Assembly (NCBI RefSeq): GCF_009931435.1
Contig: NZ_CP043414.1
Reading direction: 5' to 3' (one strand)
DNA: 64,000 nucleotides
Origin: Escherichia coli
GTDB lineage: Bacteria > Pseudomonadota > Gammaproteobacteria > Enterobacterales > Enterobacteriaceae
The notes under the pieces are model-generated. The model was not told the origin of the DNA, did not search any database, and was given only the letters and a program-made list of their open reading frames with translations. A program made the translations under genes and the position numbers. Below, piece after piece: positions 4,747-63,612 of this stretch (positions within the stretch are counted from its first letter, which is position 1; every line of letters starts with the position of its first letter).

Positions 4747-4761
4747 CATGGATTGTATAAA

Positions 4762-6452: not shown

Positions 6453-6465
6453 CCATTCCTTCTTT

Positions 6466-8043: not shown

Positions 8044-8052
8044 TTGACTTTC

Positions 8053-8085
8053 GCCGGATGCGACGTTTGAAGCGTCTTATCCGGC
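8053..8085. repeat. REP element between rof and tilS (convergent gene ends)
   Basis: GCCGGATGCGACGTTTGAAGCGTCTTATCCGGC, canonical REP palindrome. Confidence 0.65.
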
Positions 8086-8091
8086 TTTCAC

Positions 8092-9390: not shown

Positions 9391-9454
9391 GATGGTGCGA
9401 TTTTACAGTAGCAATGCCCGGCACGTTACCGGGCAAATGTGGCGATGACAAGCC

Positions 9455-9844
9455 TTACTGCTCATACAGTTCCAGCGGCAGCCCGTCAGGATCGTTAAAG
9501 AACGTGAAGCGTTTTTGCGTATACGGGTCGACACGTATGGCTTCACATTTCACGTTATGGCTTTCAAGATGCGCCACTGCCGCATCGATATCATCAACGC
9601 TAAAAGCCAGATGACGCAGGCCGCAAGCTTCCGGTCGGCTGGGGCGCTCCGGCGGGAACGGAAATGAGAAAAGCTCAATCACATATTGCCCATTAAGCGC
9701 CAAATCCCCTTTCCACGAATCGCGCGCTTCGCGATAGACTTCGCTTTGCAGCGTGAAACCGAGAATATCGCAGTAGAAAGCTTTGCTCACCGCATAATCC
9801 GTCGCAATAATCGCAATATGATGAACTTGTTTTAAACCCAGCAT
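9455..9844 (-). CDS. yaeR: VOC/glyoxalase-family protein YaeR
   Basis: 129 aa from internal ATG (MLGLKQVHHIAIIATDY...); ORF track's 138-aa form starts 9 codons upstream. Confidence 0.85.
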   Translation of the reverse strand: MLGLKQVHHIAIIATDYAVSKAFYCDILGFTLQSEVYREARDSWKGDLALNGQYVIELFSFPFPPERPSRPEACGLRHLAFSVDDIDAAVAHLESHNVKCEAIRVDPYTQKRFTFFNDPDGLPLELYEQ

Positions 9845-9900
9845 AACGTCTCCTTTATTTGTTAACAGCACGTTACTCGCCCGGAAGCCGCTCTGGCAAG

Positions 9901-12042: not shown

Positions 12043-12094
12043 GTGTTCCTCCTGGAAAATCCTTCCTTAATCATAGCCCGCTCAAACCATGGCG

Positions 12095-12125
12095 ATAAAA
12101 AAGGGCCACCGAAGTGACCCTTTTC
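12095..12125 (-). terminator. Putative intrinsic terminator downstream of accA
   Basis: Minus strand: GGGTCACTTCGGTGGCCC imperfect hairpin followed by TTTTTTATC. Confidence 0.5.
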
Positions 12126-12139
12126 AGAACATTTGCTGA

Positions 12140-13099
12140 TTACGCGTAGCCGTAGCTCATCAGGCGCTGATAACGACGATTTTTTAAATCTTCAGTGCTT
12201 AACACGTCGAGATCGGCCAGATCCGCCAGCAGCTGCGCTTTCAGAGACGCCGCCATCGCTTCCGGGTTACGGTGAGCACCACCCAGCGGTTCCGGGATGA
12301 TGGAGTCGATCAGTTTCAGTTCTTTCAAACGCGGAGCGATGATCCCCATCGCTTCAGCCGCCAGCGGCGCTTTGTCGGCGCTCTTCCACAGAATGGACGC
12401 ACAACCTTCCGGCGAGATAACAGAATAGGTGCTGTATTGCAGCATATTCACTTTATCGCCCACGCCAATCGCCAGCGCGCCGCCAGAACCACCTTCACCG
12501 ATAACGGTGCAGATAGTCGGTACGCTAAGGCGAGACATTTCACGCAGGTTGCGTGCAATGGCTTCAGACTGACCGCGTTCTTCTGCGCCCACGCCCGGAT
12601 AAGCCCCCGGGGTGTCGATAAAGGTGATGATTGGCATCTTAAAGCGTTCAGCCATTTGCATCAGACGCAGTGCTTTGCGGTAACCTTCTGGCGCTGGCAT
12701 ACCAAAGTTACGGCGAATTTTTTCTTTGGTTTCACGACCTTTTTGATGACCAATGATCATCACCGGACGACCATCGAGACGGGCGATACCACCGACGATA
12801 GCTTTATCGTCTGCATACGCGCGGTCGCCAGCCAGTTCGTCAAATTCATCAAAGGCCAGGCGAACGTAATCCAGGGTATAAGGACGCTGTGGATGGCGTG
12901 CCAGTTGCGCAATCTGCCATGCACCGAGATCGGCGAAGATTTTACGCGTCAGTTCTACGCTTTTTTCACGCAGACGATGCACTTCTTCATCGATATTAAT
13001 ATCCAGTTTCTCATCCTGGCGGCTAACCGCAGTCAGAGAATCGATTTTCGCTTCCAGCTCTGCAATCGGCTGTTCAAAATCAAGGAAATTCAGACTCAT
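12140..13099 (-). CDS. accA: Acetyl-CoA carboxylase carboxyltransferase alpha subunit
   Basis: 319-aa [23 protein letters not shown]...; recognised AccA. Confidence 0.97.
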
Positions 13100-13111
13100 A
13101 GTATTCCTGTA

Positions 13112-16100
13112 TTAGTCAAACTCCAGTTCCACCTGCTCCGAACCAATGAGGCCACGGAGATCGTTTAATAAACGATCGCTCGGAGAGACACGCCACGTCG
13201 CGCCAAAACGCAACCGCGCGCGTGCATCCGCCCTCTGATAGTAGAGATGTACTGGAATTGTCCCAGAGCGGTGGGGTTCCAGAGACTGACGGAGTCGGTT
13301 TAAAAGCTGGTCATCAATTTGCCTGTCCGTCAGCGAGATAGCAAGCCCGCGAGCATATTTTTCCCGGGCTTCGTCAATATCCATCACTTCGCGAGCGGTC
13401 ATTTTAAGCCCACCGCTGAAGTCATCAAAGCTGACCTGTCCGCTGACGATAAGTATGCGGTCTTTTTCCAGCAATTGCTGGTATTTATCCAGGGCGTCAG
13501 TAAACAACATCACTTCCAGCCGCCCGGAACGGTCATCCAGCGTGCAGATACCGATACGATTGCCGCGCTTGGTGACCATAACCCGCGCAGCAACAACGAG
13601 CCCCGCAGCCGTGGTGACTTTACCACGTTCTGTCGGGTGCATGTCTTTCAGCCTTACGCCTCCGACATAACGCTCAATCTCTTTTAAATACTGGTTGATA
13701 GGGTGTCCCGTCAGGTACAGACCTAACGTTTCACGTTCCCCATCTAACACCACCTGCTCCGGCCACGGTTGGCAACTGGCGTAGGATTGTTCAATTTGTT
13801 CCGGCTCTTCTGCCAGCACGCCGAACATATCGGCCTGACCGATGGCTTCTGCTTTCGCGTGTTGATCAGCCGCCTTTAACGCATCGCCCAGCGAGTTCAT
13901 CAGCGCCGCGCGGTGTGGCCCAAGACGGTCAAACGCCCCGGACATGATCAGTTTTTCCAGCACTCGCCGGTTTAACTTTTTGGTGTCTGTACGGGCGCAG
14001 AGATCAAACAATTCACGGAAATAGCCGCCTTTATTACGGGCTTCAATGATCGCCTCAATCGGACCTTCACCTACCCCTTTGATCGCGCCAATACCATACA
14101 CGATTTCGCCGTCGTCGTTGACGTGGAAATGGTAAAGACCGGAGTTTATATCTGGTGGTAGGATTTTCAGCCCCATCCGCCAGCACTCATCCACCAGGCC
14201 TACCACCTTCTCGGTGTTGTCCATATCGGCGGTCATTACTGCCGCCATAAACTCCGCTGGATAGTGCGCTTTCAGCCATAACGTTTGATATGAAACCAAA
14301 GCATAGGCCGCAGAGTGCGATTTGTTAAATCCGTAACCAGCGAATTTCTCCACCAGGTCGAAGATTTTCATCGCCAGTTCGGCGTTGATCCCGTTCTTTT
14401 CTGCGCCTTCAGCAAATACAGAACGCTGCTTGGCCATCTCTTCCGGCTTCTTCTTACCCATCGCACGACGCAGCATATCCGCGCCACCGAGGGTATAACC
14501 AGAAAGCACCTGGGCAATCTGCATGACCTGTTCCTGATACAGGATGATGCCGTAGGTTGGCTCCAGTACCGGTTTCAGGCTTTCATGCTGCCACTGCACA
14601 TCCGGATAGGAGATCTCTTCGCGACCATGTTTACGGTCGATAAAGTTATCCACCATCCCTGATTGCAACGGGCCGGGGCGGAACAGTGCCACCAGTGCGA
14701 TCATATCTTCGAAGCAGTCAGGTTGCAGACGTTTGATCAGGTCCTTCATGCCGCGCGATTCAAGCTGGAATACCGCCGTGGTTTCCGAGCGTTGCAGCAT
14801 GTCGAAACTTTTCTTGTCATCCAGCGGGATCGCGGCGATATCCAGCGGCGGCTCGCCATTCTTCGCCCGCCGCTTGTTGATCATCTCCAGCGCCCAGTTG
14901 ATGATGGTGAGCGTACGCAAACCAAGGAAGTCGAACTTCACCAGCCCGGCGTATTCAACGTCGCTTTTATCAAACTGGGTAACCGGATGTTTGCCCTCTT
15001 CATCGCAATAAAGCGGCGCAAAATCGGTAATTTTGGTCGGCGCGATAACCACCCCACCGGCGTGCTTACCAGCGTTACGGGTGACCCCTTCCAGTTTGCG
15101 CGCCATGTCGATCAGCGCCTTAACTTCTTCGTCCGCTTCGTAGATTTCCGGCAGTTGCGGCTCGGCTTCAAACGCTTTCGCCAGCGTCATCCCCGGATCG
15201 GGCGGGATCAGTTTCGAGATACGATCGACAAAGCCGTACGGATGCCCCAGCACGCGGCCTACGTCGCGGATCACCGCTTTTGCCGCCATTGTACCGAAGG
15301 TGATGATCTGCGATACCGCATCACGGCCGTACATATCTGCCACGTGTTCGATAACCTGGTCGCGTTTTTCCATACAGAAGTCAACGTCGAAGTCAGGCAT
15401 GGAGACACGTTCCGGGTTAAGGAAACGTTCGAACAGCAGGTCAAATTCCAACGGATCGAGGTCGGTGATTTTTAACGCGTAAGCCACCAGTGACCCTGCA
15501 CCAGAACCACGGCCAGGCCCTACCGGTACGCCGTTATCCTTCGACCACTGGATAAATTCCATAACGATGAGGAAGTAACCCGGGAAACCCATCTGGTTGA
15601 TAACCTGAAGTTCAGTATCCAGACGCTCGTCATACTCCGGGCGACGCTTAAGACGTTCTTCCTCGTCAGGGAATAAAAACGCCAGACGCTCTTCCAGGCC
15701 TTCTTTTGCACGCTTGACCAGATAATCTTCGGTGCTCATGTCCCCGGTCGGGAACTGCGGCAGGAAGTATTCACCGAGACGCACTGTCACGTTACAGCGT
15801 TTGGCGATCTCAACAGTGTTGGCAAGGGCTTCGGGGATGTCGGCAAACAGCTCGCACATCTCCTCTTCGCTGCGCATATATTGCTGCGGCGAATAATTAC
15901 GCGGGCGTTTGGGATCGTCGAGAGTAAAGCCGTCATGGATCGCGACGCGGATTTCGTGCGCGTCAAAGTCACTGCTGTCGATAAAGCGCACGTCATTGGT
16001 CGCCACGACGGGCAAACCGCGCGCTTCCGCCAGTTCCACTGCCGCGTGCAGATAACTTTCTTCGTCCGGCCTGCCGGTTCGGATCAGCTCGAGAAAATAG

Positions 16101-16594
16101 CGATCCGGGAAGTGCTCTTCATAAAACGCAACGCACTCATCTACCAGCGCGCTGTTACCACGCAAAAGACTGCGCCCGACGTCGCCCATGCGCCCGCCGG
16201 AAAGGAGGATCAGCCCTTCGTTTAATTCGATAAGCCAGTCGCGATCGATGATCGGCCCGGCGGCACCGTACCCGCGCTGATACGCTTTTGAGATCAGCAA
16301 CGTCAGATTCTGATAGCCGATATTGTTCGCCGCCAGCACCGTCAGGTGGGTTAACTCATCACCCAGCAGGTCGCACTGGACATTAAAATCTGCCCCGACG
16401 ATGGGCTTAATCCCTGCGCCATGTCCCGCTCCGTAGAACTTCACCAGACCGCAAAGGTTGGTGAAATCGGTGATCGCCAGTGCTGGCATACCCAACGCCG
16501 CCGCCTTTTTTACCAGCGGCGCGGTTTTGGCCAGGCCATCGATCATCGAGTAGTCGCTGTGCACCCGCAGGTGTACGAAACGTGGTTCAGACAT
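13112..16594 (-). CDS. dnaE: DNA polymerase III alpha subunit
   Basis: 1160-aa ORF, PHP domain N-terminus ([17 protein letters not shown]), recognised DnaE. Confidence 0.97.
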
Positions 16595-16630
16595 CTTCAG
16601 ATTCCGGTTTACTTAATCTCGACACAAGAA

Positions 16631-17227
16631 TCAGGACGCAAGTCCCAGTGCGCGTTTGACAGGCCCAAAGCTGCGACGATGATGTTCAGTCGCGCCATAT
16701 TCAGCCAGTTTTTCCAGATGAAAAGCGGTTGGATACCCTTTGTGCTGGGCAAAACCATATTGCGGGAAAACAATATCCAGCGCCGCCATTTCAGCGTCGC
16801 GCGTCACTTTCGCCAGGATAGACGCAGCACTGATTTCCGGTACGCGGCTATCGCCTTTCACCACTGCCATCGAAGGCATCGGTAATTTTGGGCAGCGGTT
16901 ACCATCAATCAACACATATTCTGGCGCAATATGCAGCCCCGCGACGGCGCGCTGCATCGCCAGCATGGTCGCATGAAGAATGTTCAGTTCGTCGATTTCG
17001 TGGGGTTCCGCGCGGCCCAGACTCCAGCTTAACGCTTTCTCTTTGATCTCTTCACAGAGCGCCAGACGGCGTTTTTCGCTCAGCTTTTTGGAATCATTCA
17101 GCCCGGCAATCGGGCGCGCCGGGTCAAGGATTACAGCAGCGGTAACCACCGCGCCAACCAACGGCCCGCGTCCGACTTCATCCACACCCGCAACCAGCTG
17201 CGTGTGCGGATAAACAAATTCGATCAT
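16631..17227 (-). CDS. rnhB: Ribonuclease HII
   Basis: 198-aa ORF, DEVGRGP catalytic motif; overlaps lpxB stop by 4 nt. Confidence 0.95.
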
Positions 17228-18372
17228 TGTGCTAACTCCAGAACGGCTTGTGCCGCCTGCTCATCGGCATTGCAGCGGATCTGCTGATGCAGTTCACGGA
17301 AGGTATCGTGCATCGCGTGACTGGTTTTCCCATTCGCCAACAGCGGTAACAGCGCCGCAGCCAGTTTTTGCGGCTCACACTCTTCCTGCAATAACTCTTT
17401 GACTAACTCTCTGCCCGCCAGCAAATTTGGTAGCGAGACATACTCGGTTTTCACCAGCCTCTTCGCCAGCCAGAAGGTAAAAGGCTTCATGCGATATCCC
17501 ACCACCATCGGGCATTTCGCCAGCATGCACTCCAGGGCTGCCGTACCCGACGCCAGTAGCGCCGCATCACTGGCGACCATCGCCTCACGGCCCATTCCAT
17601 CCAGCAGATGAACAGCAAGGTCCGGTGCGACTTCAGCTTTGATACGCTCAAACTGCTCGCGGCGTTTGGCATTCACCAGCGGCACCACGATCTCGAGATC
17701 GGGATATGTCTGACGCAAAAGCTGGGCCGTTTTCAGGAAATCGGCACTCAGCATCTCCACTTCCGCACCACGGCTTCCCGGCAGCAACGCAAGACAGTGA
17801 GCATCGTGAGGGATCCCCAGCACATCACGCGCGGCGTTTTTATCTGGATCTAACGGCATGGCATCAGCCATGGTGTGACCGATAAAACGGCACGGCACGT
17901 TGTATTTGTCATAAAACGCTTTTTCGAAAGGCAGAAATGCGAGCACCAGATCGGTGGCTCTGCCTATTTTGAAAACGCGTTTCTGTCGCCACGCCCAGAC
18001 GGACGGACTGACGTAATGAATGGTTTTGATACCCTGCTTTTTAAGATTACCTTCGAGGGTAATATTGAAGTCAGGTGCATCAATGCCGACAAAAACATCT
18101 GGCTTCAGTTCGCCAAAACGCTTTGTCAGATCGGCACGAATATGCAGTAAGCGACGCAGACGACCGAGCACTTCAACAATGCCCATCACCGCCAACTCTT
18201 CCATTTCGTACCAGGCTTCGCAGCCTTCGGCCTGCATTCGTGGCCCGGCAACGCCAACAAAGCGAGCGTTGGGCACACGTTCTTTCAGAGCACGGATTAA
18301 ACCGGCCCCCAGGATATCGCCGGAGGTTTCTCCGGCGACCAGGGCAATCGTTAATGGACGCTGTTCAGTCAT
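17224..18372 (-). CDS. lpxB: Lipid-A-disaccharide synthase
   Basis: 382-aa ORF; recognised LpxB; 1-nt overlap with lpxA. Confidence 0.95.
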
Positions 18373-19160
18373 TAACGAATCAGACCGCGCGTTGAGCGTG
18401 CAAAGAAATCGGTAAAGGCTTTTACTTCCGGATATGTTTCCGCCAGTTCGGCAATTTCCGGTTTCACTTCATCGAGCGTTTTACCGCTGCGATAAATCAG
18501 CTTATACGCATTGCGGATAGCGGTAATCGCCTCACGGCTGAATCCGCGGCGCTTCAGCCCTTCGATGTTGACACCGAACGGCGTTGCGTGGTTACCCTGC
18601 GCAATGACATAAGGAGGGACGTCCTGCGCCACACCGGAACAGCCGCCAACCATCACGTGCGCACCAATGATGCAGAACTGATGGACTGCGGTCATGCCGC
18701 CGATGATCGCGAAGTCGTCTACCGATACATGACCCGCCAGCGTTGCGTTGTTGGCGAGGATGCAGCGGTTACCTACCGTACAATCGTGCGCAATGTGCGC
18801 GTTGATCATCAGTAAGTTGTCGCTGCCCACCTTCGTCAATCCACCGCCCTGGACTGTGCCACGATGAATGGTGACGCTTTCGCGAATGCGGTTACGATCG
18901 CCGATTTCCACACGGGTCGGTTCGCCAGCATATTTAAGATCCTGGTTGACTTCGCCGATGGAGGCGAACTGATAAATCTCATTGTCGCGGCCAATTTTAG
19001 TATGACCATTCACGACAACGTGAGATTTCAGTACGGTACCCTCACCAATTTCGACATGGGGTCCAACGATACAAAAAGGACCAATGTGAGCATTGGCGGC
19101 AATCGATGCGCCCTCTTCCACAATGGCGGTTGGATGCACAAAGGCGGATTTATCAATCAC
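18372..19160 (-). CDS. lpxA: UDP-N-acetylglucosamine acyltransferase
   Basis: 262-aa ORF with hexapeptide (left-handed beta-helix) repeats; recognised LpxA. Confidence 0.96.
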
Positions 19161-19163
19161 GTA

Positions 19164-19619
19164 TCAGGCCTCCCGGCTACGAGCACACATCATCGTTGCT
19201 TCGCAAACTACTTTACCGTCGACCAGAGCAACCCCTTTAAAACGGGTCAGGCCGCGGCGCGTTTTTTCGAAAGTGACTTCCATGATCATTTGATCGCCTG
19301 GCACGACCGGGCGCTTGAAGCGCGCTTCGTCAATACCGGCGAAGTAGTACAGCTCGCCCGGTTCCAGTTTTCCTACGCTCTTAAACGCCAGAATACCTGT
19401 TGCCTGTGCCATTGCTTCCAGAATAAGCACACCCGGGAAAATCGGTTTTCCAGGAAAATGGCCCTGGAAGAATGGCTCATTGACAGAGACATTTTTTACT
19501 GCGCGCAGAAAACGACCTTCTTCAAAATCCAGCACGCGATCCACCAGTAAGAACGGGAAACGGTGCGGCAGAAGTTCTAAAATCTCTTCAATCTGCAGAG
19601 TATGAGTGTTAGTAGTCAA
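19164..19619 (-). CDS. fabZ: 3-hydroxyacyl-ACP dehydratase FabZ
   Basis: 151 codons from TTG at 19619 ([23 protein letters not shown]...) with AGGAAG RBS; ORF track 182-aa form also starts at TTG; no in-frame ATG near N-terminus. Confidence 0.93.
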
Positions 19620-19723
19620 GATACTCTTCCTGTCAAAATATAAGAAACGACAATAATAACACGGCCTGCCGCAATCGTAAGAATGAGACAGGCCGTAAAG
19701 TTTGGCGAACAAAAGATGGAACG

Positions 19724-20749
19724 TTAGTCTTGTTGATTAACCTTGCGCTCAAGCGATTTCAAACGCTTGCTCATGTCATCAATGTTCATCACCAGTGCAG
19801 CGGTTTTGCGCCAGACTTTGTTGGGTTGCAGCGGAATGCCTGAGGAATAGACGCCTGGTTCAGTGATGGGACGCATCACCATACCCATGCCCGTAACCGT
19901 CACTTTGTCGCATATTTCCATATGCCCGTTGATTACGCTGGCTCCGCCGATCATGCAGTAACGACCAATTTTCAGGCTTCCCGCCATAATGACGCCACCG
20001 GCAACCGCCGTATTGTCGCCAATCACGACGTTATGTGCAATCTGGCACTGGTTATCAATGATCACACCATTGCCAATAACAGTGTCATCCAGCGCGCCGC
20101 GATCGATGGTAGTACATGCGCCGATCTCCACGCGATCGCCAATAATTACGCGACCAATCTGCGGGATCTTCACCCAGTTACCCCGATCGTTGGCATAACC
20201 AAAGCCGTCTGCGCCTACCACTGTTCCGGACTGGATCAGGCAATTCTGACCGATCTGGATCTCATGGTAAATGGTTACGTTCGCCCAGAGACGCGAACCT
20301 GCACCTATTTTGCTGTTTTTACCTACGAAGCAACCGGCACCGATAATCACGTTATCGCCCAGTTCAACGCCGGACTCAATCACCGCGTTAGCGCCAATCG
20401 ATACGTTGTTACCCAGCTTCGCCGTCGCGTCGATCACCGCACTGGGTGCAATGTTCTGCGCGGGCTGCGGCGTGGTATCTAAAATTTGCGCCATGCGCGC
20501 GTAAGTCAGGTAGGGGTTCTTCACTACCAGCGCGGCACTTTTCGCGAAAGGAAGATCGTCCTGGGTCATGACAACCGCGGACGCCTGGCACAAGCCTAAA
20601 TGCTCACGGTATTTTGGGTTAACCATGAACGTGATGTGACCTGTTTGTGCAGATTGCATGGACGCAACGCCGGTGATGACGATATCGCCATCACCGTGTA
20701 GTTCTGCATCCAACTGCTGCGCTAAATCAGCCAGTCGAATTGAAGGCAT
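19724..20749 (-). CDS. lpxD: UDP-3-O-(3-hydroxymyristoyl)glucosamine N-acyltransferase
   Basis: 341-aa ORF with hexapeptide repeats; recognised LpxD. Confidence 0.96.
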
Positions 20750-21359: not shown

Positions 21360-23810
<2,451 letters not shown>

Positions 23811-30011: not shown

Positions 30012-30863
30012 TTAAGACTGCTTGGACATCGCAGCAACTTCTGCTGCAAAGTCAGTCTCAACTTTCTCGATGCCTTCACCTACTTCGAAGCGGATGAAGC
30101 CAGTCACTTCAGCGTTATGCTCTTTCAGCAGCTGACCAACAGTTTTGCTTGGTTCCATAACGAACGGCTGACCGGTCAGAGAAACTTCGCCGGTGAATTT
30201 CTTCATGCGGCCTTCAACCATTTTCTCTGCGATTTCTTTCGGCTTACCAGACTGCATCGCGATATCCAGCTGAACCTGGTATTCTTTCTCTACCACTTCA
30301 GCGGAAACGTCTTCCGGTTTGATGAATTCTGGTTTGCTTGCAGCAACGTGCATAGCGATGTGTTTAACCAGCTCTTCGTCAGCGCCTTTAGCAGCAACCA
30401 GAACGCCGATACGCGCACCGTGCTGATAAGAACCCAGAACGTCGCCTTCCAGCGCAGCAACGCGGCGAATGTTGATGTTTTCACCGATTTTCGCTACCAG
30501 CGCAACACGTTCTTCTTCGAACTGTGCTTTCAGAACTTCAACGTCAGTGATTTTGCCAGCAACAGCTGCGTCCAGAACTTTGTCTGCGAACGCCTGGAAA
30601 CCAGCGTCTTTTGCAACGAAGTCAGTCTGGCAGTTAACTTCCAGAATGATGCCGTAGTTGCCGTCGATTTTGGTTTTGATCACGCCGTCAGCAGCAACGT
30701 TGCCTGCTTTTTTCGCTGCTTTGATAGCACCGGACTTACGCATGTTTTCGATTGCCAGCTCGATGTCGCCGTTAGCTTCAGTCAGTGCTTTTTTGCAATC
30801 CATCATGCCTGCGCCAGTACGCTCACGCAGCTCTTTTACCAGGGATGCGGTAATTTCAGCCAT
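30012..30863 (-). CDS. tsf: Elongation factor Ts
   Basis: 283-aa [30 protein letters not shown]...; recognised EF-Ts. Confidence 0.97.
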
Positions 30864-30918
30864 TCTAAAATCCTCGGAGATGTGATCTGCCCGGCGTTAA
30901 ACCGCACAGATATAAAAG

Positions 30919-30946
30919 TGAAAAAGGGGGCCATATGCAGGCCCCC
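30919..30946 (-). terminator. Attenuator-type intrinsic terminator in rpsB-tsf intergenic region
   Basis: Minus strand: GGGGGCCtgcatatGGCCCCC perfect 7-bp GC stem followed by TTTTTCAC, just upstream of tsf start. Confidence 0.65.
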
Positions 30947-31030
30947 TAACCAAACGTGTACTACCTGGTCTATAAGGGCTCTCCCCCCTTCATATTTCGC
31001 GCCGCAGATGCGTTGTCTTCGCTCGCTCAT

Positions 31031-31070
31031 CCCGGTCACTTACTGATGTAAGCTCCCGGGAATTCTCGAG
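31031..31070. repeat. boxC-like imperfect palindromic repeat in rpsB-tsf spacer
   Basis: CCCGGTCACTTACTGATGTAAGCTCCCGGG palindrome; 3' arm continues into CCCGGGAATTCTCGAG. Confidence 0.5.
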
Positions 31071-31121: not shown

Positions 31122-32069
<948 letters not shown>

Positions 32070-36598: not shown

Positions 36599-36609
36599 AA
36601 GTATGTACA

Positions 36610-36640
36610 CGGGCAGCACGACGCTGCCCGATTGCTTTCT
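36610..36640 (+). terminator. Intrinsic terminator downstream of dapD
   Basis: Hairpin CGGGCAGCacgacGCTGCCCG followed by ATTGCTTTCT. Confidence 0.6.
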
Positions 36641-36910
36641 GGTTCAGAATAATTCGTCCTACTCATTCTTCTTCCCCTTTTTTAAATACTTTTTCATCTT
36701 GTTTCGGACTGTCATGTAATTCGCAAAACAAAGATAAATGTGCTAATCCATCCCATGGAATATCGCCAGAATAAAGCAGGTAATTTTTTGATTTTTACGC
36801 CATGATAGAAGTCTGGAAGAAAAAGGCTTTCTGCGATCACAGTCGAGCCGGGCGGGCCAGGCCAAATGCTAAAATAAGCACAATTTACTGACTCATTTTG
36901 AGGTAACGCT

Positions 36911-37350: not shown

Positions 37351-38508
37351 CTACCGCTCTTCATCTAGTTGCAGCGCCACATACAGCAGCAACCTGTCAT
37401 CAAAATTGCCCAAATCAAGCCCGGTCAGTTCCGATATACGATTAAGCCGATACTCAAGAGTATTACGATGAATAAACAACGCCTTTGACGTTGCCAGCGG
37501 TTGCACATTGTGGCGAAACCACGCCGCCAGCGTTCGCCGCAGCAAGCCGTTATTGTCCATCGCTTTCAGCCGCGCCAGCGGTCGCGCCAGTTCGTTGGCC
37601 TGCCAGTCGCCACGCAAACTGTCTAGCAACACAGGCAACATCAAATCCTGATAAAAATAGCAGCGACTTTCGGGCATCCGCTGTTTACCCACCACCATCG
37701 TCGTTTTCGCCGTACGATAAGAGCGGGCAATACTGCCTGGTCCGGTAAAATAGTTACCCAGCGAAACGCGAAAACGTAGCTGACCATACTCTTTCATGCG
37801 GGCAATCAGTTGTTCAACTCGCTTACGATGATCTTCTGCATCCCAGCGCCCAAACGAATTCAACGCCGGTTTCAACACCACCATTTCGGTCAGTGAAACA
37901 ATCGCCACCAGATTATTACGCTCGGGCGTAGTCAGCGCGTTTTGCAGTTGCTGTAACTCCGCCATTGCGCTATCCACGCCAAGTTGACCGCTATCGACCT
38001 CAACAATAGCCACCACTCGCGGTTGATTGAGATCGATCCCCAACCGTTGCGCCCATTCAGTGAGTGCGGGAGTATTCTCCTCCGCCTGAATCAGGTTCAT
38101 CACCAACTCTTCCCGCAAACGGCTATCCTGCGCCAACAGATGCATCAACCGCGACTGTTCCAGCATCATTTCAGCCGTCATGCAGACCAGTTCGCCATAT
38201 TTACGCAGATTCTCTGGTTCACCAGTCAGGCCGATTACGCCGACAATTTCACCTTCCAGCCGTAATGGTAGATTAATCCCCTGCCGCACACCGTGCAGAT
38301 GACGTGCCACCGCGTCATCGATATCGACGACTCGTCCCTGTGAAAGTACCAGCAATGCACCTTCGTGCAATTCACCAATACGCTCACGATCGCCGCTGCC
38401 GATAATACGCCCGCGGGCATCCATTACGTTAATATTGGTATCAATGATGCGCATGGTGCGCGCCACGATATCCTGCGCCATTTTGGTATCAAGATGCCAG
38501 CCAGCCAT
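37351..38508 (-). CDS. cdaR: Carbohydrate diacid regulator CdaR (SdaR)
   Basis: 385 aa from MAGWHLDTKMAQDIVARTMRII..., C-terminal PucR-type HTH; ORF track adds 6 codons upstream. Confidence 0.9.
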   Translation of the reverse strand: MAGWHLDTKMAQDIVARTMRIIDTNINVMDARGRIIGSGDRERIGELHEGALLVLSQGRVVDIDDAVARHLHGVRQGINLPLRLEGEIVGVIGLTGEPENLRKYGELVCMTAEMMLEQSRLMHLLAQDSRLREELVMNLIQAEENTPALTEWAQRLGIDLNQPRVVAIVEVDSGQLGVDSAMAELQQLQNALTTPERNNLVAIVSLTEMVVLKPALNSFGRWDAEDHRKRVEQLIARMKEYGQLRFRVSLGNYFTGPGSIARSYRTAKTTMVVGKQRMPESRCYFYQDLMLPVLLDSLRGDWQANELARPLARLKAMDNNGLLRRTLAAWFRHNVQPLATSKALFIHRNTLEYRLNRISELTGLDLGNFDDRLLLYVALQLDEER

Positions 38509-38626
38509 AAGTCCTCCGTTATGCACGGCTTAGCATAAGGAAGTACGTAACGTACGGCATTGTGCAAATGCCCAAAGGATGAGGAAGATGTATGGAGTTG
38601 TGGTGAAGTTCACAGATTGTAAGGAG

Positions 38627-38656
38627 AACCCCTTCCCGTTTTCAGGAAGGGGTTGA
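38627..38656 (-). terminator. Putative terminator downstream of degP
   Basis: CCCCTTCCcgttttcaGGAAGGGG 8-bp stem between degP stop and cdaR start; weak U-tract. Confidence 0.5.
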
Positions 38657-38662
38657 GGAAGA

Positions 38663-40087
38663 TTACTGCATTAACAGATAGATGGTGCTGTCGCCGCGCT
38701 GAATATTCAGTGCCAGCACAGACGGTTTGCTGTCGAGAACTTTACGCAGTTCAGCGATGTTTTTCACTGCCTGCTGGTTCGCACCAATAATCACATCACC
38801 TTTCTTCAGGCCGATCTGCGCAGCTGGAGTGCCCGTTTTCACGTTGTTCACCACCACGCCCTGATCTTTGCCTTTGTTGCTCATCTCAGCGCCTTCAATG
38901 CCGTTGAAGATGGTGCTGGAATCAACCTGATTCTGGCTGCTCTGCTGCAGTTCCAGGTTCACGTTAACCTGCTTCCCGTCGCGCAGTAAGCCCAGGGTCA
39001 GTTTGCTGCCTACCGGCATAGTGCCCACCTGAGCACGCAGTGCGGCAAAGCTGCTGATTGGCTTACCGTTCAGTGAGGTGATCACATCACCCGCTTTAAT
39101 GCCCGCTTTCGCGGCGGAAGAATTCGGCAGAACCTGGCTTACGAAAGCACCGCGCTGGGCGTCAACTTTCATCGCTTTCGCCAGATCGGAGTTCAGCTCA
39201 GTCCCCATAATACCCAGCTCACCGCGTTTCACCTGGCCGTATTCCACCATCTGCGAGGTCAGGTTTTTCACCATGTTACTCGGGATAGCAAAACCGATAC
39301 CGATGTTGCCGCCGTCCGGTGCGAGGATCGCGGTGTTGATACCGATCAGTTCGCCGTTCAGGTTAACCAGCGCACCACCGGAGTTACCACGGTTGATCGC
39401 AGCATCGGTCTGGATGAAGTTTTCATAGTTTTCGGCATTCAGACCGCTACGCCCCAGCGCAGAGACAATCCCGGAAGTTACCGTCTCACCCAGACCAAAC
39501 GGGTTACCAATTGCTACGGTGTAATCACCCACGCGCAGTGCATCAGAATCCGCCATCTTAATTGCGGTCAGATTTTTCGGGTTCTGGATCTGGATCAGCG
39601 CGATATCAGAGCGCGGATCTTTGCCAACCATCTTCGCGTCGAACTTACGACCATCGCTCAGCTGGACTTTAATCACCGTCGCGTTATCAACAACGTGGTT
39701 GTTGGTGACGACATAGCCTTTATCGGCATCAATGATGACGCCGGAACCCAGCGCCATGAATTTCTGTTGCTGGCCGCCGCCATTACCGCCCTGGCCCCCC
39801 TGGCAGAACGGAGAGCTCTGGAACGGAGAACCTTCCTGGCAGAACGGAGAATCATCACCGAAGAACTGCTGGAAATTACGCGGCATACGCGGCGTATTAA
39901 CGGTTGTGCTACCTTCTACGTTAATGCTGACCACTGAAGGCATCACCTTTTCGAGCATCGGTGCAAGGCTTGGCATCTGCTGGGCTGTCGTTGCTGAAGA
40001 AGTCTCAGCCGCCGTTGCAGAGAGCGGAGATAACGCCAAACCTAAACTCAGAGCCAGTGCACTCAGTGCTAATGTGGTTTTTTTCAT
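38663..40087 (-). CDS. degP: Periplasmic serine endoprotease/chaperone DegP (HtrA)
   Basis: 474-aa ORF, signal peptide, GNSGGAL catalytic serine motif, Q/G-rich linker, two PDZ domains. Confidence 0.96.
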   Translation of the reverse strand: MKKTTLALSALALSLGLALSPLSATAAETSSATTAQQMPSLAPMLEKVMPSVVSINVEGSTTVNTPRMPRNFQQFFGDDSPFCQEGSPFQSSPFCQGGQGGNGGGQQQKFMALGSGVIIDADKGYVVTNNHVVDNATVIKVQLSDGRKFDAKMVGKDPRSDIALIQIQNPKNLTAIKMADSDALRVGDYTVAIGNPFGLGETVTSGIVSALGRSGLNAENYENFIQTDAAINRGNSGGALVNLNGELIGINTAILAPDGGNIGIGFAIPSNMVKNLTSQMVEYGQVKRGELGIMGTELNSDLAKAMKVDAQRGAFVSQVLPNSSAAKAGIKAGDVITSLNGKPISSFAALRAQVGTMPVGSKLTLGLLRDGKQVNVNLELQQSSQNQVDSSTIFNGIEGAEMSNKGKDQGVVVNNVKTGTPAAQIGLKKGDVIIGANQQAVKNIAELRKVLDSKPSVLALNIQRGDSTIYLLMQ

Positions 40088-40129
40088 GTATTTCAGTCTC
40101 GATTAACAGATAACGCAAAATTGCTGTGT

Positions 40130-40162
40130 TCTTCAGATTCGTTTTATAGCGCGAAGTTCCGA
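40130..40162 (-). promoter_or_regulatory. Sigma-E (RpoE) promoter of degP
   Basis: Minus strand GGAACTT (-35, 40154-40160) - 16 nt - TCTGA (-10, 40133-40137), matching sigma-E consensus and known degP promoter architecture. Confidence 0.7.
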
Positions 40163-40179
40163 ACTAAAGTTTCTGCAAA

Positions 40180-40207
40180 AGGTAAAAATTTATTGTTCGT
40201 CTTTACA
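40180..40207 (-). promoter_or_regulatory. Putative CpxR binding region upstream of degP promoter
   Basis: GTAAA pentamers on both strands (GGTAAAAATTTATTGTTCGTCTTTAC) at expected distance upstream of sigma-E promoter. Confidence 0.4.
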
Positions 40208-40216
40208 AAAGCCTGG

Positions 40217-41734
40217 TTATTGTTCTACGGCCATCAGACGTCGGTATTCATCCCAGGCATAGAGGTCGGTCATACCGCTGATATAATCCTGCAGCAGGCG
40301 GCAACGGTAATAATATTCCCATAGCGGAAACTCAGGAGAATCTGACGGTAATTTACTGACAGCCTCGACATAGGCCAGCCGATGGCGCGTCGAGAGTTTG
40401 TGGAATAAGCGCGATTCAATAGGGAAACGTTTCACCCGTTCTTTTTCTACCAGTTCAGTAAAGTCTGATAACGACAGGCTTAATAAAGGGCGATAAATCT
40501 CTAATAATCCGCTAATGACCCGATAGCCCTGCAATTCAAGCTGCTCGACATCTGGATGGCTAAACACATGTTTTACAGCGACATTTTTATATAGCTTTAG
40601 AAGATCGCTGCATTCGCTGGCATCTTCCAATAATGCATGATTAAACGTTCCGGCGAAAATCGCAGGCAGATTATCAATAAATCGTTGTGCCGCGTAGGGT
40701 ACCAGTTTATTTAGGGTGTTTACCCGTAAATACATAAAAAACTGATCTTCCGTACTGCGGCTTAAACTATTTGAGCGTGATTTTTCCCAGGCATTTTCAA
40801 CCACCAGCGAAAAGAGCGAACCTTTCTCATGCTGGCCCCACGCTTCGTGCAAATGATGATAAAGCTGCTCAACGCTGAATATTCTTTTCTCTACCGCATC
40901 TTCAAGATCTGCCACACAATAGGAGATGTCGTCGGCAGCTTCCATAATCCACGTTAATGGAAAACGACTGTAAAGCGCCAAATTAAGTTCTTTACGCAAC
41001 CGGGCAATATAGGCTTCTTCAGAAAGATAATAACCCGGCTTTTTCATTAAATAGTGATGTGTCTCAGGCGTTTCACCACGCCACCACGCCGGACGAGTAT
41101 ATTTTAAAATACCGCCAACCTGTGCCCAGGTGAGATTCATCCGCATCAATGTATGCACCAGACGAATGCCTTGTGCATTCCCCTCAAAATGACATAAGTC
41201 CTGACGTATTTTGCGCCGCAGCTCGTTAAGCGGTTCTTCCCCGTCCCGTAAACGTAGTGCTGCCACGCTGCAGCGATCGTCAGTCAGAGGCTGGCTTTCG
41301 GCATCAGCCGGATACAAACGCTGGCGAAACCAGTCATTTATCGCCGCTTCGCCAAAATGGCCAAACGGCGGATTGCCGATATCGTGCATCAGGCATGACA
41401 TCTCAACAATACTTTCAAAAGGGCCGGTCAGTTCATCCAGACCATACTCTTCCAGTAATTTAAGCTCTTTCAGACGGCTTAAAATTTCTTTGGCGATGTA
41501 GCGCCCCACCTGCTGGACTTCCATTGAATGGGTAAGACGCGTGCGCACGGCGGCATTTCGCTCCAGCGGAAAAACCTGGGTCTTTTGTTGCAGACGACGA
41601 ATTGCCGGAGAGTTGATAATACGCCCGCGATCGCTCTCAAAGATTCGCAGGATCTCATGTTCGGTTTTAACGCCCTGTGGTGAACGGTAACGACGATGCC
41701 AGTTTATTTTTTTTCGGAAATCAATCTGTGCCAT
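40217..41734 (-). CDS. dgt: dGTP triphosphohydrolase
   Basis: 505-aa ORF with HD-domain motifs ([11 protein letters not shown]); recognised Dgt. Confidence 0.95.
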
Positions 41735-41817
41735 GTCCTCTCCCGCGTGAGAAATACGCTTCCCCGTAAGCGCATGGTAAACTATGCCTTCAAATCGGGC
41801 TTATCGCGAGTAAATCT

Positions 41818-42516
41818 ATGAAAATCGGCATCATTGGTGCAATGGAAGAAGAAGTTACGCTGCTGCGTGACAAAATCGAAAACCGCCAAACTATCAGTCT
41901 GGGCGGTTGCGAAATCTATACCGGCCAACTGAATGGAACCGAAGTTGCGCTTCTGAAATCGGGCATCGGTAAAGTCGCTGCGGCACTGGGTGCAACTCTG
42001 CTGTTGGAACACTGCAAGCCAGATGTGATTATTAACACCGGTTCTGCCGGTGGCCTGGCGCCAACGCTGAAAGTGGGCGATATCGTTGTCTCGGACGAAG
42101 CACGTTATCACGACGCGGATGTCACGGCATTTGGTTACGAATACGGTCAGTTACCTGGCTGCCCGGCTGGCTTCAAAGCTGACGATAAACTGATCGCTGC
42201 CGCTGAGGCCTGCATTGCCGAACTGAATCTTAACGCTGTACGTGGCCTGATTGTCAGCGGCGACGCTTTCATCAACGGTTCTGTTGGCCTGGCGAAAATC
42301 CGCCACAACTTCCCGCAGGCCATTGCTGTAGAGATGGAAGCGACGGCAATCGCTCATGTCTGCCACAATTTTAACGTCCCGTTTGTTGTCGTACGCGCCA
42401 TCTCCGACGTGGCCGATCAACAGTCTCATCTTAGCTTCGATGAGTTCCTGGCTGTTGCTGCTAAACAGTCCAGCCTGATGGTTGAGTCACTGGTGCAGAA
42501 ACTGGCACATGGCTAA
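41818..42516 (+). CDS. mtnN: 5'-methylthioadenosine/S-adenosylhomocysteine nucleosidase
   Basis: 232-aa [27 protein letters not shown]...; recognised Mtn/Pfs. Confidence 0.95.
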
Positions 42517-43309
42517 GTCACTGTTCAGGGCGCTGGTCGCCCTGTCTTTTCTCGCCCCTCTGTGGCTCAACGCCGCACCGCGCGTCATCACGCTTTCACC
42601 CGCCAACACTGAACTTGCTTTTGCCGCCGGGATCACGCCGGTTGGGGTCAGCAGTTATTCCGACTACCCTCCACAAGCGCAAAAGATTGAGCAGGTTTCA
42701 ACCTGGCAGGGGATGAATCTCGAACGCATTGTGGCCCTTAAACCCGATCTGGTGATTGCCTGGCGTGGAGGTAATGCCGAGCGGCAGGTTGGCCAGTTAG
42801 CTTCGCTGGGAATAAAAGTGATGTGGGTCGATGCGACAAGCATTGAACAAATTGCCAATGCGTTACGTCAACTGGCCCCCTGGAGTCCACAACCAGACAA
42901 GGCCGAACAAGCCGCACAATCCCTGCTGGACCAGTACGCACAATTGAAAGCGCAATATGCTGATAAACCTAAAAAACGTGTTTTTCTGCAATTCGGCATT
43001 AATCCGCCATTTACCAGTGGAAAAGAGTCGATTCAAAACCAGGTACTCGAAGTTTGTGGCGGAGAAAACATCTTTAAAGACAGCCGGGTTCCCTGGCCGC
43101 AAGTTAGCCGCGAACAGGTGTTAGCACGCGCGCCACAGGCGATTGTCATTACAGGCGGACCGGACCAAATTCCTAAAATCAAACAATACTGGGGTGAACA
43201 GCTCAAAATTCCCGTTATTCCTCTCACGAGTGACTGGTTTGAACGTGCAAGCCCACGTATTATCCTCGCTGCACAACAGCTCTGTAATGCGCTTTCACAG
43301 GTAGATTAG
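42509..43309 (+). CDS. btuF: Vitamin B12-binding periplasmic protein BtuF
   Basis: 266 aa from [26 protein letters not shown]...; start overlaps mtn stop by 8 nt. Confidence 0.93.
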
Positions 43310-43346
43310 CGCCTGATCTTTTCAGGTGCTCAGTGGGGATTGAACA

Positions 43347-43970
43347 ATGCTCGTCTATTGGCTGGATATAGTCGGCACAGCGGTATTTGCCATCTCCGGC
43401 GTTTTGTTAGCCGGAAAATTGCGTATGGACCCTTTTGGTGTTCTGGTACTGGGCGTGGTTACCGCAGTAGGCGGCGGGACAATTCGCGACATGGCGCTGG
43501 ATCACGGCCCGGTCTTTTGGGTGAAAGATCCCACCGATCTGGTTGTTGCAATGGTGACCAGCATGCTGACGATCGTGCTGGTGCGCCAGCCAAGACGCTT
43601 ACCGAAATGGATGTTGCCGGTGCTGGATGCCGTTGGTCTGGCGGTGTTTGTCGGCATTGGCGTGAATAAAGCCTTTAATGCGGAAGCCGGTCCGTTAATC
43701 GCGGTTTGTATGGGCGTCATTACTGGCGTTGGCGGCGGGATCATTCGTGATGTACTGGCCCGCGAAATCCCCATGATTTTACGCACAGAAATCTACGCAA
43801 CGGCCTGTATTATCGGCGGTATTGTCCACGCTACGGCTTATTACACATTTTCCGTACCACTGGAAACAGCCAGTATGATGGGCATGGTCGTGACGCTATT
43901 GATTCGGCTGGCGGCTATTCGTTGGCATCTTAAGCTACCGACGTTTGCGCTGGATGAGAATGGGCGTTGA
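43347..43970 (+). CDS. yadS: UPF0126 inner-membrane protein YadS
   Basis: 207-aa hydrophobic ORF with two copies of a G-G-G-x-I-R-D motif (internal duplication). Confidence 0.88.
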   Translation: MLVYWLDIVGTAVFAISGVLLAGKLRMDPFGVLVLGVVTAVGGGTIRDMALDHGPVFWVKDPTDLVVAMVTSMLTIVLVRQPRRLPKWMLPVLDAVGLAVFVGIGVNKAFNAEAGPLIAVCMGVITGVGGGIIRDVLAREIPMILRTEIYATACIIGGIVHATAYYTFSVPLETASMMGMVVTLLIRLAAIRWHLKLPTFALDENGR

Positions 43971-47369: not shown

Positions 47370-47383
47370 TCCAGCATGGTTTG

Positions 47384-47468
47384 TCGGATGCGGCGTAAAC
47401 GCCTTATCCGACCTACAGATCAGGACCGTTTGTAGGCCCGATAAGACGCCACAGCGTCGCATCGGGCA
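47384..47468. repeat. BIME (pair of inverted REP units) between convergent hemL and fhuB
   Basis: GTCGGATGCGGCGTAAACGCCTTATCCGACCTACA and TGTAGGCCCGATAAGACGCCACAGCGTCGCATCGGGCA. Confidence 0.7.
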
Positions 47469-47526
47469 TCCGTTGCCGCGTAAAAGCTTTATCCATCCAG
47501 GAGTTAAGGGCCGTTATATGGAAAAA

Positions 47527-51243: not shown

Positions 51244-53487
51244 TTAGAAACGGAAGGTTGCGGTTGCAACGACCTGACGTTCTGCGCCCCAGAAGCAGCC
51301 ATAGGTATTAAAGCAGCTGGCGACGTATTCACGATCGAACAGGTTGTTGACATGCAGCGCCACGTTGGAGCCAGCCATGCCGACCCGCGCCAGATCATAA
51401 CGCACTAACGCATCCACGACCGTATAACTTCCCACTTTAAAGGAGTTAGCCGGATCACCATAGCTGGAGCCAGTATAACGACCACCAGTACCCAGCGTCA
51501 GGCCAGAAAGCGGACCATCAAAGAAGGTGTAGTCAGCCCACAGCGAAGCCATATGTTTTGGCACCTGCGCAGGCGTATTGCCTTTATAGGTAGTGTCGGT
51601 GGTGTATTCTGCATCGGTGTAAGTATAAGAACCAACTACGTTAACACTCGCCGACAGCGCCGCTTTCGCTTCGATTTCTACGCCACGCGCGCGGATTTCA
51701 CCACCTTCAACCGAGAAGAAGGAACCCTCAGGGTCCGCCATCAGGTTGTTGGTTTTAGTGAGATTATACACAGCACCAGTAACCACAATTGGGCGATCTT
51801 CCGGTACATATTTCACGCCGACCTCATACTGCTTACCTTTAGACGGCGCAAAAATATTACCATCCTTCCCAACTTGTGAAGAAGGTTCAAACGATTCGCT
51901 ATAGCTGAAGTAAGGTGTTACACCATTATCAAACAGGTAGTTAACACCACCACGCCAGGTAAACTGTTTGTCATCACGTTTATCGGTCGTCCCTTCAACG
52001 CGGTTATGAGACTCTTGATCCGCCCAGTCATAACGACCGCCCAGGGTGACCAGCACTTTATCCCACTGCGCCTGATCCTGAACATAAACACCCGTTTGTT
52101 TCTGCTTATTCAGAATGCGGTAAGGGCCGGAGTTTGCCGGATCTTTCGCATTGAAGTCGAAATCGGTATTCACCGGATTGTACAGATCGAGCAGCGGTAC
52201 GGAGTCGTCGTAACCAAACCAGGCGTTGATGTCATTACGCATACGCATAAAGTCGACACCGGTCAGCAGAGTGTGGTCGATATCGCCAGTGGCAAACTTG
52301 CTCTGCAACTGGGTATCAACGGAGAAGTTTTGCAGCTTCTCATCATCAACGACGTATTTACGTGCCAGGTAGTGACCTTTATCGGCTGGCGCTAAAGCGG
52401 CACACTGTTTGCTGTAAGCATTCGCCGGATCGGAGCAGACGCCGTAACCATAAACGCTGTTTTGCGAGGTTTTGTTTTCAGCAAAGCGCAGGTTCTGACG
52501 CACAGTAAAGGTGTCGTTAAATTCGTGATCGAAGCTGTAGCCCACCATCTTCTCATTACGAGAATAGGTGTTGTTCTTCGCCCCTTCGTTAAAATCTGTC
52601 GGCAGACGCTTACCGTTCGGCAGCGGCTCAACGGTTCCCTCTTTCGGCAGCCAGCCGTAATAACCGGTTTCCGGCTCGTTCTGGAAGTAAGAAAGGAAGG
52701 TGAAATTGGTTTTATCATCCGGACGCCAGGTAAACGCTGGCGCAATGGCATAACGCTGCTCTTCCGCGCCCTTTTGCTGGGCATTGGCAGAGCGCGCCAG
52801 TCCGGTCAGACGATAAGAGTAAACGCCGTCATCATCCAGCGCATCGCTAAAGTCGAAACCGGTCTGGAACAGGCTGTCTGTGCCCGCTTTAAATTGGATT
52901 TCTTTCAGCGGTTCGGTGGTTGGGCGCTTGCTGACCATATTTAACAGGCCGCCAGGGCTACTTTTACCGTAAAGAACAGAAACAGGGCCACGCATAATTT
53001 CAGCGCGTTCCAGCATATACGGGTCAATAACTGCATCGTTATAGAAGTTGCCTTGCAACTTCAGACCATTCAGATAGTTATTCTGGCTTTGGCCTTCTGC
53101 TGCAAAACCACGAATAATCAAATGATCATAAGTGTTTGATGCACCACGCGTACCGACCGAAACGCCTGGCGTATAGCTAAGCGCTTCTTTTACTGACTTA
53201 GGCTGATGCAGCGCCATTTCTTCGGCAGTGACAACAGAAATTGACTGCGGCACTTTTTGAATCGGTGTATCGGTTTTGGTGCCGGTAGCGGACTGTCGCG
53301 CCGCAATAGTTGCAGCTGGCCCCCATGCGCTTTCTTGCGGCGCTGGTGCAGCGGTAACGGTGATAGTGTCTTCTTTCGGTTCAACCGCTGCCTGTGCATA
53401 AACAGACATGCCGCTAACCGCTGTGGCTACTACAACTGCGATTTTACGCAGTGAGTGTTTTGGCTGAGCAGTTTTGGAACGCGCCAT
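51244..53487 (-). CDS. fhuA: TonB-dependent ferrichrome outer-membrane receptor FhuA
   Basis: 747-aa ORF, signal peptide, TonB box (DTITV), C-terminal ...ATATFRF; recognised FhuA. Confidence 0.96.
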   Translation of the reverse strand: MARSKTAQPKHSLRKIAVVVATAVSGMSVYAQAAVEPKEDTITVTAAPAPQESAWGPAATIAARQSATGTKTDTPIQKVPQSISVVTAEEMALHQPKSVKEALSYTPGVSVGTRGASNTYDHLIIRGFAAEGQSQNNYLNGLKLQGNFYNDAVIDPYMLERAEIMRGPVSVLYGKSSPGGLLNMVSKRPTTEPLKEIQFKAGTDSLFQTGFDFSDALDDDGVYSYRLTGLARSANAQQKGAEEQRYAIAPAFTWRPDDKTNFTFLSYFQNEPETGYYGWLPKEGTVEPLPNGKRLPTDFNEGAKNNTYSRNEKMVGYSFDHEFNDTFTVRQNLRFAENKTSQNSVYGYGVCSDPANAYSKQCAALAPADKGHYLARKYVVDDEKLQNFSVDTQLQSKFATGDIDHTLLTGVDFMRMRNDINAWFGYDDSVPLLDLYNPVNTDFDFNAKDPANSGPYRILNKQKQTGVYVQDQAQWDKVLVTLGGRYDWADQESHNRVEGTTDKRDDKQFTWRGGVNYLFDNGVTPYFSYSESFEPSSQVGKDGNIFAPSKGKQYEVGVKYVPEDRPIVVTGAVYNLTKTNNLMADPEGSFFSVEGGEIRARGVEIEAKAALSASVNVVGSYTYTDAEYTTDTTYKGNTPAQVPKHMASLWADYTFFDGPLSGLTLGTGGRYTGSSYGDPANSFKVGSYTVVDALVRYDLARVGMAGSNVALHVNNLFDREYVASCFNTYGCFWGAERQVVATATFRF

Positions 53488-53509
53488 TGGTATATCTCTG
53501 ATGTAAAGT

Positions 53510-53545
53510 GAATGATAACGTAAACGAGAATGATTATTATAAAGA
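53510..53545 (-). promoter_or_regulatory. Fur box / iron-regulated promoter region of fhuA
   Basis: GAATGATAACGTAAACGAGAATGATTATTATAAAG: overlapping GATAAT/ATTATC hexamer arrays resembling Fur consensus, 20-60 nt upstream of fhuA start. Confidence 0.6.
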
Positions 53546-53665
53546 TGAGATAATATTCGAAACGCTGGCGGGTTCGCAAGCGGTACGCAATCTGAGCATT
53601 CCTGAGGGGTTAATAAACAATCAGATGAAAAGAAAGGGTTAATACTTTGGGTAGGATGTTATTTT

Positions 53666-53690
53666 ACCGGATGGCGACTCGCCATCCGGT
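53666..53690 (-). terminator. Strong inverted repeat downstream of mrcB (possible terminator; no U-tract)
   Basis: ACCGGATGGCGactCGCCATCCGGT, 11-bp perfect stem, 16 nt after mrcB stop. Confidence 0.4.
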
Positions 53691-53705
53691 ATGTCAGCTT
53701 AGACG

Positions 53706-63139: not shown

Positions 63140-63612
63140 CAGTGGCGTATATTGCTATCGGCAGCAATCTGGCCTCTCCGCTGGAGCAGGTCAATGCTGC
63201 CCTGAAGGCAATAGATGACATTCCTGAAAGCCGCATTCTTGCCGTTTCTTCGTTTTACCGCACCCCACCACTGGGGCCGCAAGATCAACCCGATTACTTA
63301 AACGCAGCCGTGGCGCTGGAAACCTCTCTTACAGCTGAAGAACTCCTCAACCACACACAGCGTATTGAGTTGCAGCAAGGTCGCGTCCGCAAAGCTGAAC
63401 GCTGGGGACCGCGCACGCTCGATCTTGATATCATGTTGTTTGGTAATCAGGTCATAAACACTGAGCGCCTGACCGTTCCGCACTATGATATGAAGAATCG
63501 TGGATTTATGTTGTGGCCGCTGTTTGAGATCGCGCCGGAACTGGTGTTTCCTGATGGTGAAACGCTGCAAGCAAGACTCACTACTTTCCCTCCCTGCCCA
63601 CAGCACTGGTAA
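63136..63612 (+). CDS. folK: 6-hydroxymethyl-7,8-dihydropterin pyrophosphokinase (HPPK)
   Basis: 158-aa [23 protein letters not shown]..., start overlaps pcnB stop by 4 nt; C-terminal ~17 aa differ from K-12 FolK as I recall it. Confidence 0.9.

Follow-up and report, generated by a model that had tools for sequence, protein, structure and literature searches.

The dGTP triphosphohydrolase Dgt of E. coli K-12 is a hexameric HD-domain enzyme that converts dGTP to deoxyguanosine and triphosphate, and deletion of its gene increases dGTP about twofold and causes a mutator effect (PMC9478638; PMC4014421). The promoter-up mutation optA1 raises dgt expression about 50-fold, and this over-expression lowers dGTP and blocks the growth of T7 phages that lack gene 1.2 (PMC9478638; PMC4014421). 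Gp1.2 acts on the enzyme directly, as its N-terminus enters the active site of Dgt and holds the substrate in a non-catalytic pose (PMC9478638). Like Dgt, the members of the anti-phage dGTPase family (the Sp-dGTPase family, covered by the models NF041026 and PDLC02374 and called dGTPase in DefenseFinder) are HD-domain dNTP triphosphohydrolases; both cleave dGTP to deoxyguanosine and triphosphate (dG + PPPi) and both are related to SAMHD1. The Dgt considered here is about 50 amino acids longer and belongs to the core genome, whereas anti-phage dGTPases are found in islands, on plasmids or on phage-plasmids, and only anti-phage members are known to be activated by phage. Between K-12 dgt and the defensive Sp-dGTPase the identity is 24%, and defence islands show no enrichment of close dgt homologues, with a dual role being left open (Tal et al., bioRxiv 10.1101/2021.04.26.441389); the defence-associated set of the same study comprises proteins with at least 45% identity to Sp-dGTPase. 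A further described system is Clover, which consists of the dGTPase CloA and the nucleotide-signal synthase CloB (PMC12265719). CloA shares the HD/HE active-site architecture with Dgt but is octameric and signal-regulated, and Clover requires the adjacent partner CloB, which the dgt gene considered here lacks: it is flanked by degP and mtn at distances of 129 and 83 bp. In the Clover study E. coli Dgt is termed a 'basal housekeeping enzyme' (PMC12265719).

How does the dgt gene in a 64-kb stretch of E. coli DNA, here called the window, compare with these systems? What this gene encodes and does, the phage protein that inhibits it and its place in the core genome have all been described before. 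Judged from the sequence and its surroundings, this dgt is very probably a vertically inherited chromosomal gene for the housekeeping Dgt, expressed at wild-type level and accompanied by neither partner genes nor an island, and the 64-kb window as a whole very probably carries no defence system.

The dgt gene, its promoter and its neighbours

The locus is made up of the following features, given as coordinates in the window, strand and identity:

40217-41734, minus strand: dgt coding sequence, an ATG-started open reading frame of 505 amino acids for dGTP triphosphohydrolase, the E. coli-type hexameric HD-domain enzyme
41735-41817, no strand assigned: divergent dgt/mtn intergenic region of 83 bp with the dgt promoter, the classical optA1 site
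41818-42516, plus strand: mtn (mtnN) coding sequence, MTA/SAH nucleosidase, an open reading frame whose protein is identical to that of K-12
38663-40087, minus strand: degP (htrA) coding sequence, periplasmic serine endoprotease, an open reading frame, with degP in all matching genomes
40082-40127, minus strand: degP 5' leader with the Rfam HtrA thermometer RF02700 (77 bits, gathering score 52)

The original prediction had named the gene dgt, and this identification was correct, as the open reading frame at the same coordinates encodes a protein of equal length to K-12 Dgt (b0160; PDB 4X9E) with which it has 500 of 505 residues in common (99.0% identity). At the nucleotide level, aligning the gene codon by codon with that of K-12 MG1655 reveals 34 differences (97.8% identity). 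A search among solved structures matched residues 1-505 to 4X9E with 1150 bits and also returned the E. coli Dgt structures 4XDS and 6OI7 as well as 7U65, the complex with T7 Gp1.2 (a further structure of the K-12 enzyme is 6OIY); the Pfam domains found in the protein are HD and HD_assoc. The comparison with the reference enzyme that had been proposed as a check reveals five substitutions, A96E, H141Y, E143A, T287S and R398Q, and leaves the catalytic residues unchanged. More precisely, the metal ligands H69, H117, D118 and D268 are all kept, and catalytic H126 and E129 are intact, as are the substrate residues Q53, Y272, D276 and F391. In a comparison of eight other dgt alleles, sampled widely across E. 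coli, Dgt varies at only 11 positions, and the window protein differs from each of these alleles by at most seven amino acids. Q398 and Y141 are both frequent in E. coli, Y141 occurring in four of the eight; E96 and A143 are shared, among the sampled alleles, only with the closest complete genome, that of strain 2017-02-2CC, and S287 was seen in the window protein alone (none of the eight). Between window and K-12, dN/dS amounts to 0.05 for dgt and to 0-0.03 for the neighbouring genes, and the low value for dgt points to strong purifying selection without the signature of an arms race. At 99% identity to the K-12 enzyme, the window Dgt would be expected to have the same dGTPase activity and the same hexameric assembly.

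The 83 bp between dgt and mtn are, together with the flanking coding starts, identical base for base to those of K-12 MG1655, and the intergenic region is also identical in strain 2017-02-2CC. An optA1-like promoter-up allele, for which identity to the wild type served as test, was rejected because the promoter region is that of wild-type K-12, and with such a region a wild-type, non-optA1 level of dgt expression would be expected. A scan for consensus promoters and terminators around dgt yielded counts no higher than the shuffled expectation and none above chance in 41735-41817.

On the downstream side of dgt, degP is reached after 129 bp and encodes a protein that differs by two amino acids from that of K-12. 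The HtrA thermometer falls inside this 129-bp spacer, and a sigma-E-like motif, GGAACTT...TCTGA, which we take to be a sigma-E promoter, is found upstream of the degP leader. On the upstream side, mtn is 83 bp away and divergently transcribed, and the outer neighbours beyond degP and mtn are cdaR and btuF. That dgt lies between degP and mtn as in the core genome had been part of the original prediction and is fully borne out: the 5.5-kb block 38000-43500 (cdaR-degP-dgt-mtnN-btuF) is contiguous and annotated alike in 5424 of the 5426 complete E. coli genomes, and dgt alone is present in 5424 complete E. coli genomes, the median copy number being one. Gene order and orientation around dgt in K-12 are those of the window, and public contigs that encode exactly the window Dgt protein carry the same neighbour genes. 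The intergenic gaps within 38000-43000 measure 136, 129 and 83 bp and are thus too short to hold an accessory gene that escaped annotation; genes of this kind close to dgt were rejected on the grounds of these short gaps, and the mechanical antisense open reading frames inside dgt are unsupported. With degP and mtn as neighbours, and with the outcome of the PADLOC HMM screen described below, the earlier statement that no accessory defence gene adjoins dgt holds as well.

Regarding mobility, dgt genes with at least 99% identity occur in PLSDB 'plasmids' of 0.4-4.9 Mb (CP099174.1, NZ_OL790696.1, NZ_CP134663.1 and others), which are most likely misfiled chromosomes or chromosome fragments and therefore provide no evidence for mobility of dgt. 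A putative mobile Dgt-type copy on the 149-kb 'plasmid' CP044307.1 was discarded; it is 59% identical, lies in three pieces and belongs to a record that is nearly unannotated (42 features).

Housekeeping Dgt and anti-phage dGTPases

In NCBIfam, the housekeeping Dgt equivalog is represented by NF003429 with a cut-off of 405 bits and the anti-phage dGTPase by NF041026 with a cut-off of 400 bits. Window Dgt reaches 895.6 bits on NF003429, its residues 1-504 being aligned to positions 1-500 of the 500 in the profile, but on NF041026 it attains 195 bits in two partial stretches and remains under the cut-off. As positive control served the anti-phage dGTPase of the 88.7-kb IncY plasmid pTET-GZEC065 (positions 3989-5344), retrieved by tblastn of a plasmid collection, which matches NF041026 over its full length with 573 bits and NF003429 with 143 bits. 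The control is 25% identical to window Dgt with 27% gaps, and window Dgt has an insertion around residues 139-181 relative to it, while TIGR01353 matches both proteins. As judged by these profiles, the scores on NF003429 and NF041026 and the identity of 25% assign the window gene to the housekeeping Dgt family and not to the anti-phage dGTPase family, both of which belong to one superfamily. Moreover, window Dgt falls under the bar of 45% used by Tal et al., with 25% identity to the E. coli plasmid anti-phage dGTPase, the figure for Sp-dGTPase being the one that these authors gave for K-12. The original prediction had called the gene the housekeeping copy, and both the NF003429 score, well above its cut-off, and the universal synteny confirm this. 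In E. coli, genuine anti-phage dGTPases are carried by plasmids with sizes of about 88-102 kb; in the one that was inspected, pTET-GZEC065 of the IncY type, the gene adjoins an ssb gene and an IS1.

How would a defence-system predictor treat the window gene? With the PADLOC dGTPase model PDLC02374, the raw HMM search gives window Dgt an E-value of 1.3e-70 and 236.8 bits in two stretches, the best of which spans positions 34-128 of the 395 in the profile, compared with 493 bits and positions 29-381 of 395 for the control from pTET-GZEC065. This match of window Dgt probably reflects superfamily homology. The expectation that 38000-43000 would be free of predictor matches is therefore upheld in part: dgt fails the curated model NF041026, but at the level of the raw PADLOC HMM dgt itself triggers a match, and a PADLOC run might label the window gene 'dGTPase'. 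A search of the literature for the handling of core dgt by PADLOC found nothing usable. For DefenseFinder, a survey of E. coli that cites this tool assigns the dGTPase defence system to the yjcB-ssb island and calls it 'very rarely reported' (PMC11728103), and in a study of ETEC it was confined to single strains and to plasmids (PMC11267873). Since core dgt is present in essentially every E. coli genome, such surveys cannot be counting it, and their report of dGTPase as rare implies that core dgt is left out of the count. In practice, as the PADLOC dGTPase HMM cross-matches the universal dgt at E = 1e-70, raw matches are not to be counted as 'dGTPase defence'. The pair of models NF003429 and NF041026, or alternatively coverage of the full-length profile, cleanly tells core dgt (896 and 195 bits, respectively) from the plasmid anti-phage gene (143 and 573 bits).

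Dgt, Gp1.2 and phage restriction

K-12 Dgt trims the dGTP pool and affects replication fidelity. In the proposed mode of action, the level of window Dgt, with an unaltered promoter, would be the low one of the wild type, which would not make it a dedicated anti-phage system. Dgt would become a barrier to T7 only upon over-expression, as in optA1, and only for a phage without Gp1.2. The residues of Dgt that contact Gp1.2 are A130, N133, R137, H182, H227, K232, P233, R436 and F437 (Klemm 2022, PMC9478638), and all nine are the same in window Dgt and in K-12. The same paper also names 'F193', but position 193 is a valine in both K-12 and the window and F183 adjoins H182, so that 'F193' is probably a numbering slip. 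With an activity like that of K-12 Dgt and, by the same token, a likely sensitivity to Gp1.2, the window enzyme would have the housekeeping task of trimming the nucleotide pool and would be targeted by phages, and it would not be an inducible defence.

That T7-like phages have a dedicated inhibitor suggests that phages are under some selective pressure even from core Dgt (PMC9478638). Could core Dgt therefore, at its native expression level, serve as a low-level constitutive SAMHD1-like restriction factor, with housekeeping and defence functions both, by limiting dGTP for phages that lack an inhibitor of the Gp1.2 type? The specific T7 inhibitor and the block of T7 without gene 1.2 in optA1 (PMC9478638; PMC4014421) would agree with such a function, but descriptions of the phenotype are confined to the promoter-up allele with its roughly 50-fold effect, whereas the window promoter is wild type. 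Tal et al. (bioRxiv 10.1101/2021.04.26.441389) left this possibility open, yet the same authors found dgt without association to defence islands. The homology of window Dgt to the PADLOC dGTPase model, likewise compatible with a restriction function, is at the level of the superfamily, while the dN/dS of 0.05 speaks for purifying selection without a sign of an arms race and the distribution of dgt is near-universal rather than patchy. On balance, restriction of phages by native levels of core Dgt is considered unlikely. Highly improbable is the more far-reaching proposition that native core Dgt adds measurably to phage restriction in a rare lineage in which A96E, E143A, T287S and H141Y weaken inhibition of the Gp1.2 type; if it were true, housekeeping Dgt would be a quietly evolving antiviral factor and not a passive target.

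The window allele could also be an inhibitor-escape variant in which H141Y and E143A would weaken the binding of Gp1.2. Both substitutions are situated just past the helix that contains the contacts A130, N133 and R137, four to six residues from a contact, and E143A and A96E are, among the sampled genomes, common only to the closest one, 2017-02-2CC. However, none of the named Gp1.2-contact residues is altered, H141Y is a common polymorphism found in four of the eight other sampled alleles, and the non-synonymous changes, at five of 505 residues and with a dN/dS of 0.05, do not cluster, which leaves an escape allele scarcely credible. The preferred reading is that of a housekeeping Dgt, and the question of defence turns to the other genes of the window.

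Defence genes and other features of the 64-kb window

The PADLOC HMM screen comprised 57 window proteins, namely the ten around dgt and 47 others, and among these 57 it returned nothing past generic domain homology. Matches on degP, at 1e-14 or weaker, are restricted to the trypsin-like protease portion of the models for RT-Protease, LmuA, HamA and Avs, and the match of mtn to the Effector PN-superfamily model (1.7e-15, partial) is due to the shared PNP/nucleosidase fold only. Except for the single-gene dGTPase and RT-Protease_XI, the models matched are parts of systems with several components, the rest of which are absent, and the genes that carry the matches are well-known core genes in their usual operons. 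The 64-kb window contains neither tRNA nor tmRNA genes, has no gap of coding size without a known gene and no mobile element or unexplained insertion, and runs collinear with the core genome between metN and folK. A defence system hidden elsewhere in the window, to which matches of the PADLOC models mad3, mad8, AriA, PtuA and Cas3 could be taken to point, has a practically negligible probability, as all of these matches were rejected, the first four falling on fhuC (the ABC-transporter ATPase of the fhuACDB operon) by ABC/AAA ATPase motifs only and Cas3 on the DEAH helicase hrpB by helicase motifs only, and as collinearity with the core genome extends over the whole window, which is devoid of tRNA genes and unexplained coding-size gaps. 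The earlier report of an empty search for a defence island is in line with the 57-protein screen, the collinearity and the lack of tRNA genes, and as a clean negative the 64-kb stretch from metN to folK can be annotated as containing no defence system.

Exceptions to collinearity exist relative to strain 2017-02-2CC: the window lacks yaeI and a fimbrial operon and has one spacer that is about 120 bp longer; in addition, the final 430 bp after folK (63571-64000) diverge from the nearest genome. Both K-12 and the nearest complete genome carry the phosphodiesterase gene yaeI; in the window it is missing between dapD and yaeH, where a 312-bp spacer (36599-36910) is found. Since the junction without yaeI is contiguous in 3338 of the 5426 complete E. 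coli genomes, its absence is a common presence/absence polymorphism. The fimbrial operon, of the chaperone-usher type with four genes and about 5.3 kb, is located in 2017-02-2CC at the site where fhuA directly adjoins mrcB in the window (53488-53705). The longer spacer is the one between hemL and fhuB (47370-47526); it contains REP-like GC-rich palindromes, for example gtcggatgcggcgtaaacgccttatccgac, which are presumably REP elements.

Matches to two RNAs lie in another part of the window:

30926-31036 and 31875-31961, minus strand: CssrA sRNA and t44 RNA, around rpsB-tsf (Rfam gathering-level matches)

The same region contains an antisense open reading frame of 309 amino acids (30117-31046, plus strand) that is longer than tsf on the opposite strand (30012-30863, 283 amino acids). 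It was rejected as a gene, being purely mechanical, and it misled the greedy picking of longest open reading frames.

Over positions 1-20000 of the window none of the complete E. coli genomes is at least 99% identical, and the strain appears to come from a sparsely sampled, mosaic lineage. In draft contigs with an identical Dgt protein, dgt differs from the window by 0.2% and degP, cdaR and mtn by 0.4-0.7%, as compared to 3% for btuF and about 2% for yadS and clcA. This pattern of divergence suggests a recombination boundary near 42500, between mtn and btuF.

Finally, dgt had been described as the only defence-relevant activity in the window, which is accurate as far as defence systems are concerned but overlooks the phage-receptor genes fhuA (51244-53487) and bamA (21360-23792). 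FhuA is the receptor for T1, T5 and phi80 and BamA the receptor for some Stx phages; both genes bear on phage susceptibility and are not defence systems. The segment fhuB-fhuA, at 97.0% identity, is the most divergent long segment of the window relative to the nearest genome.
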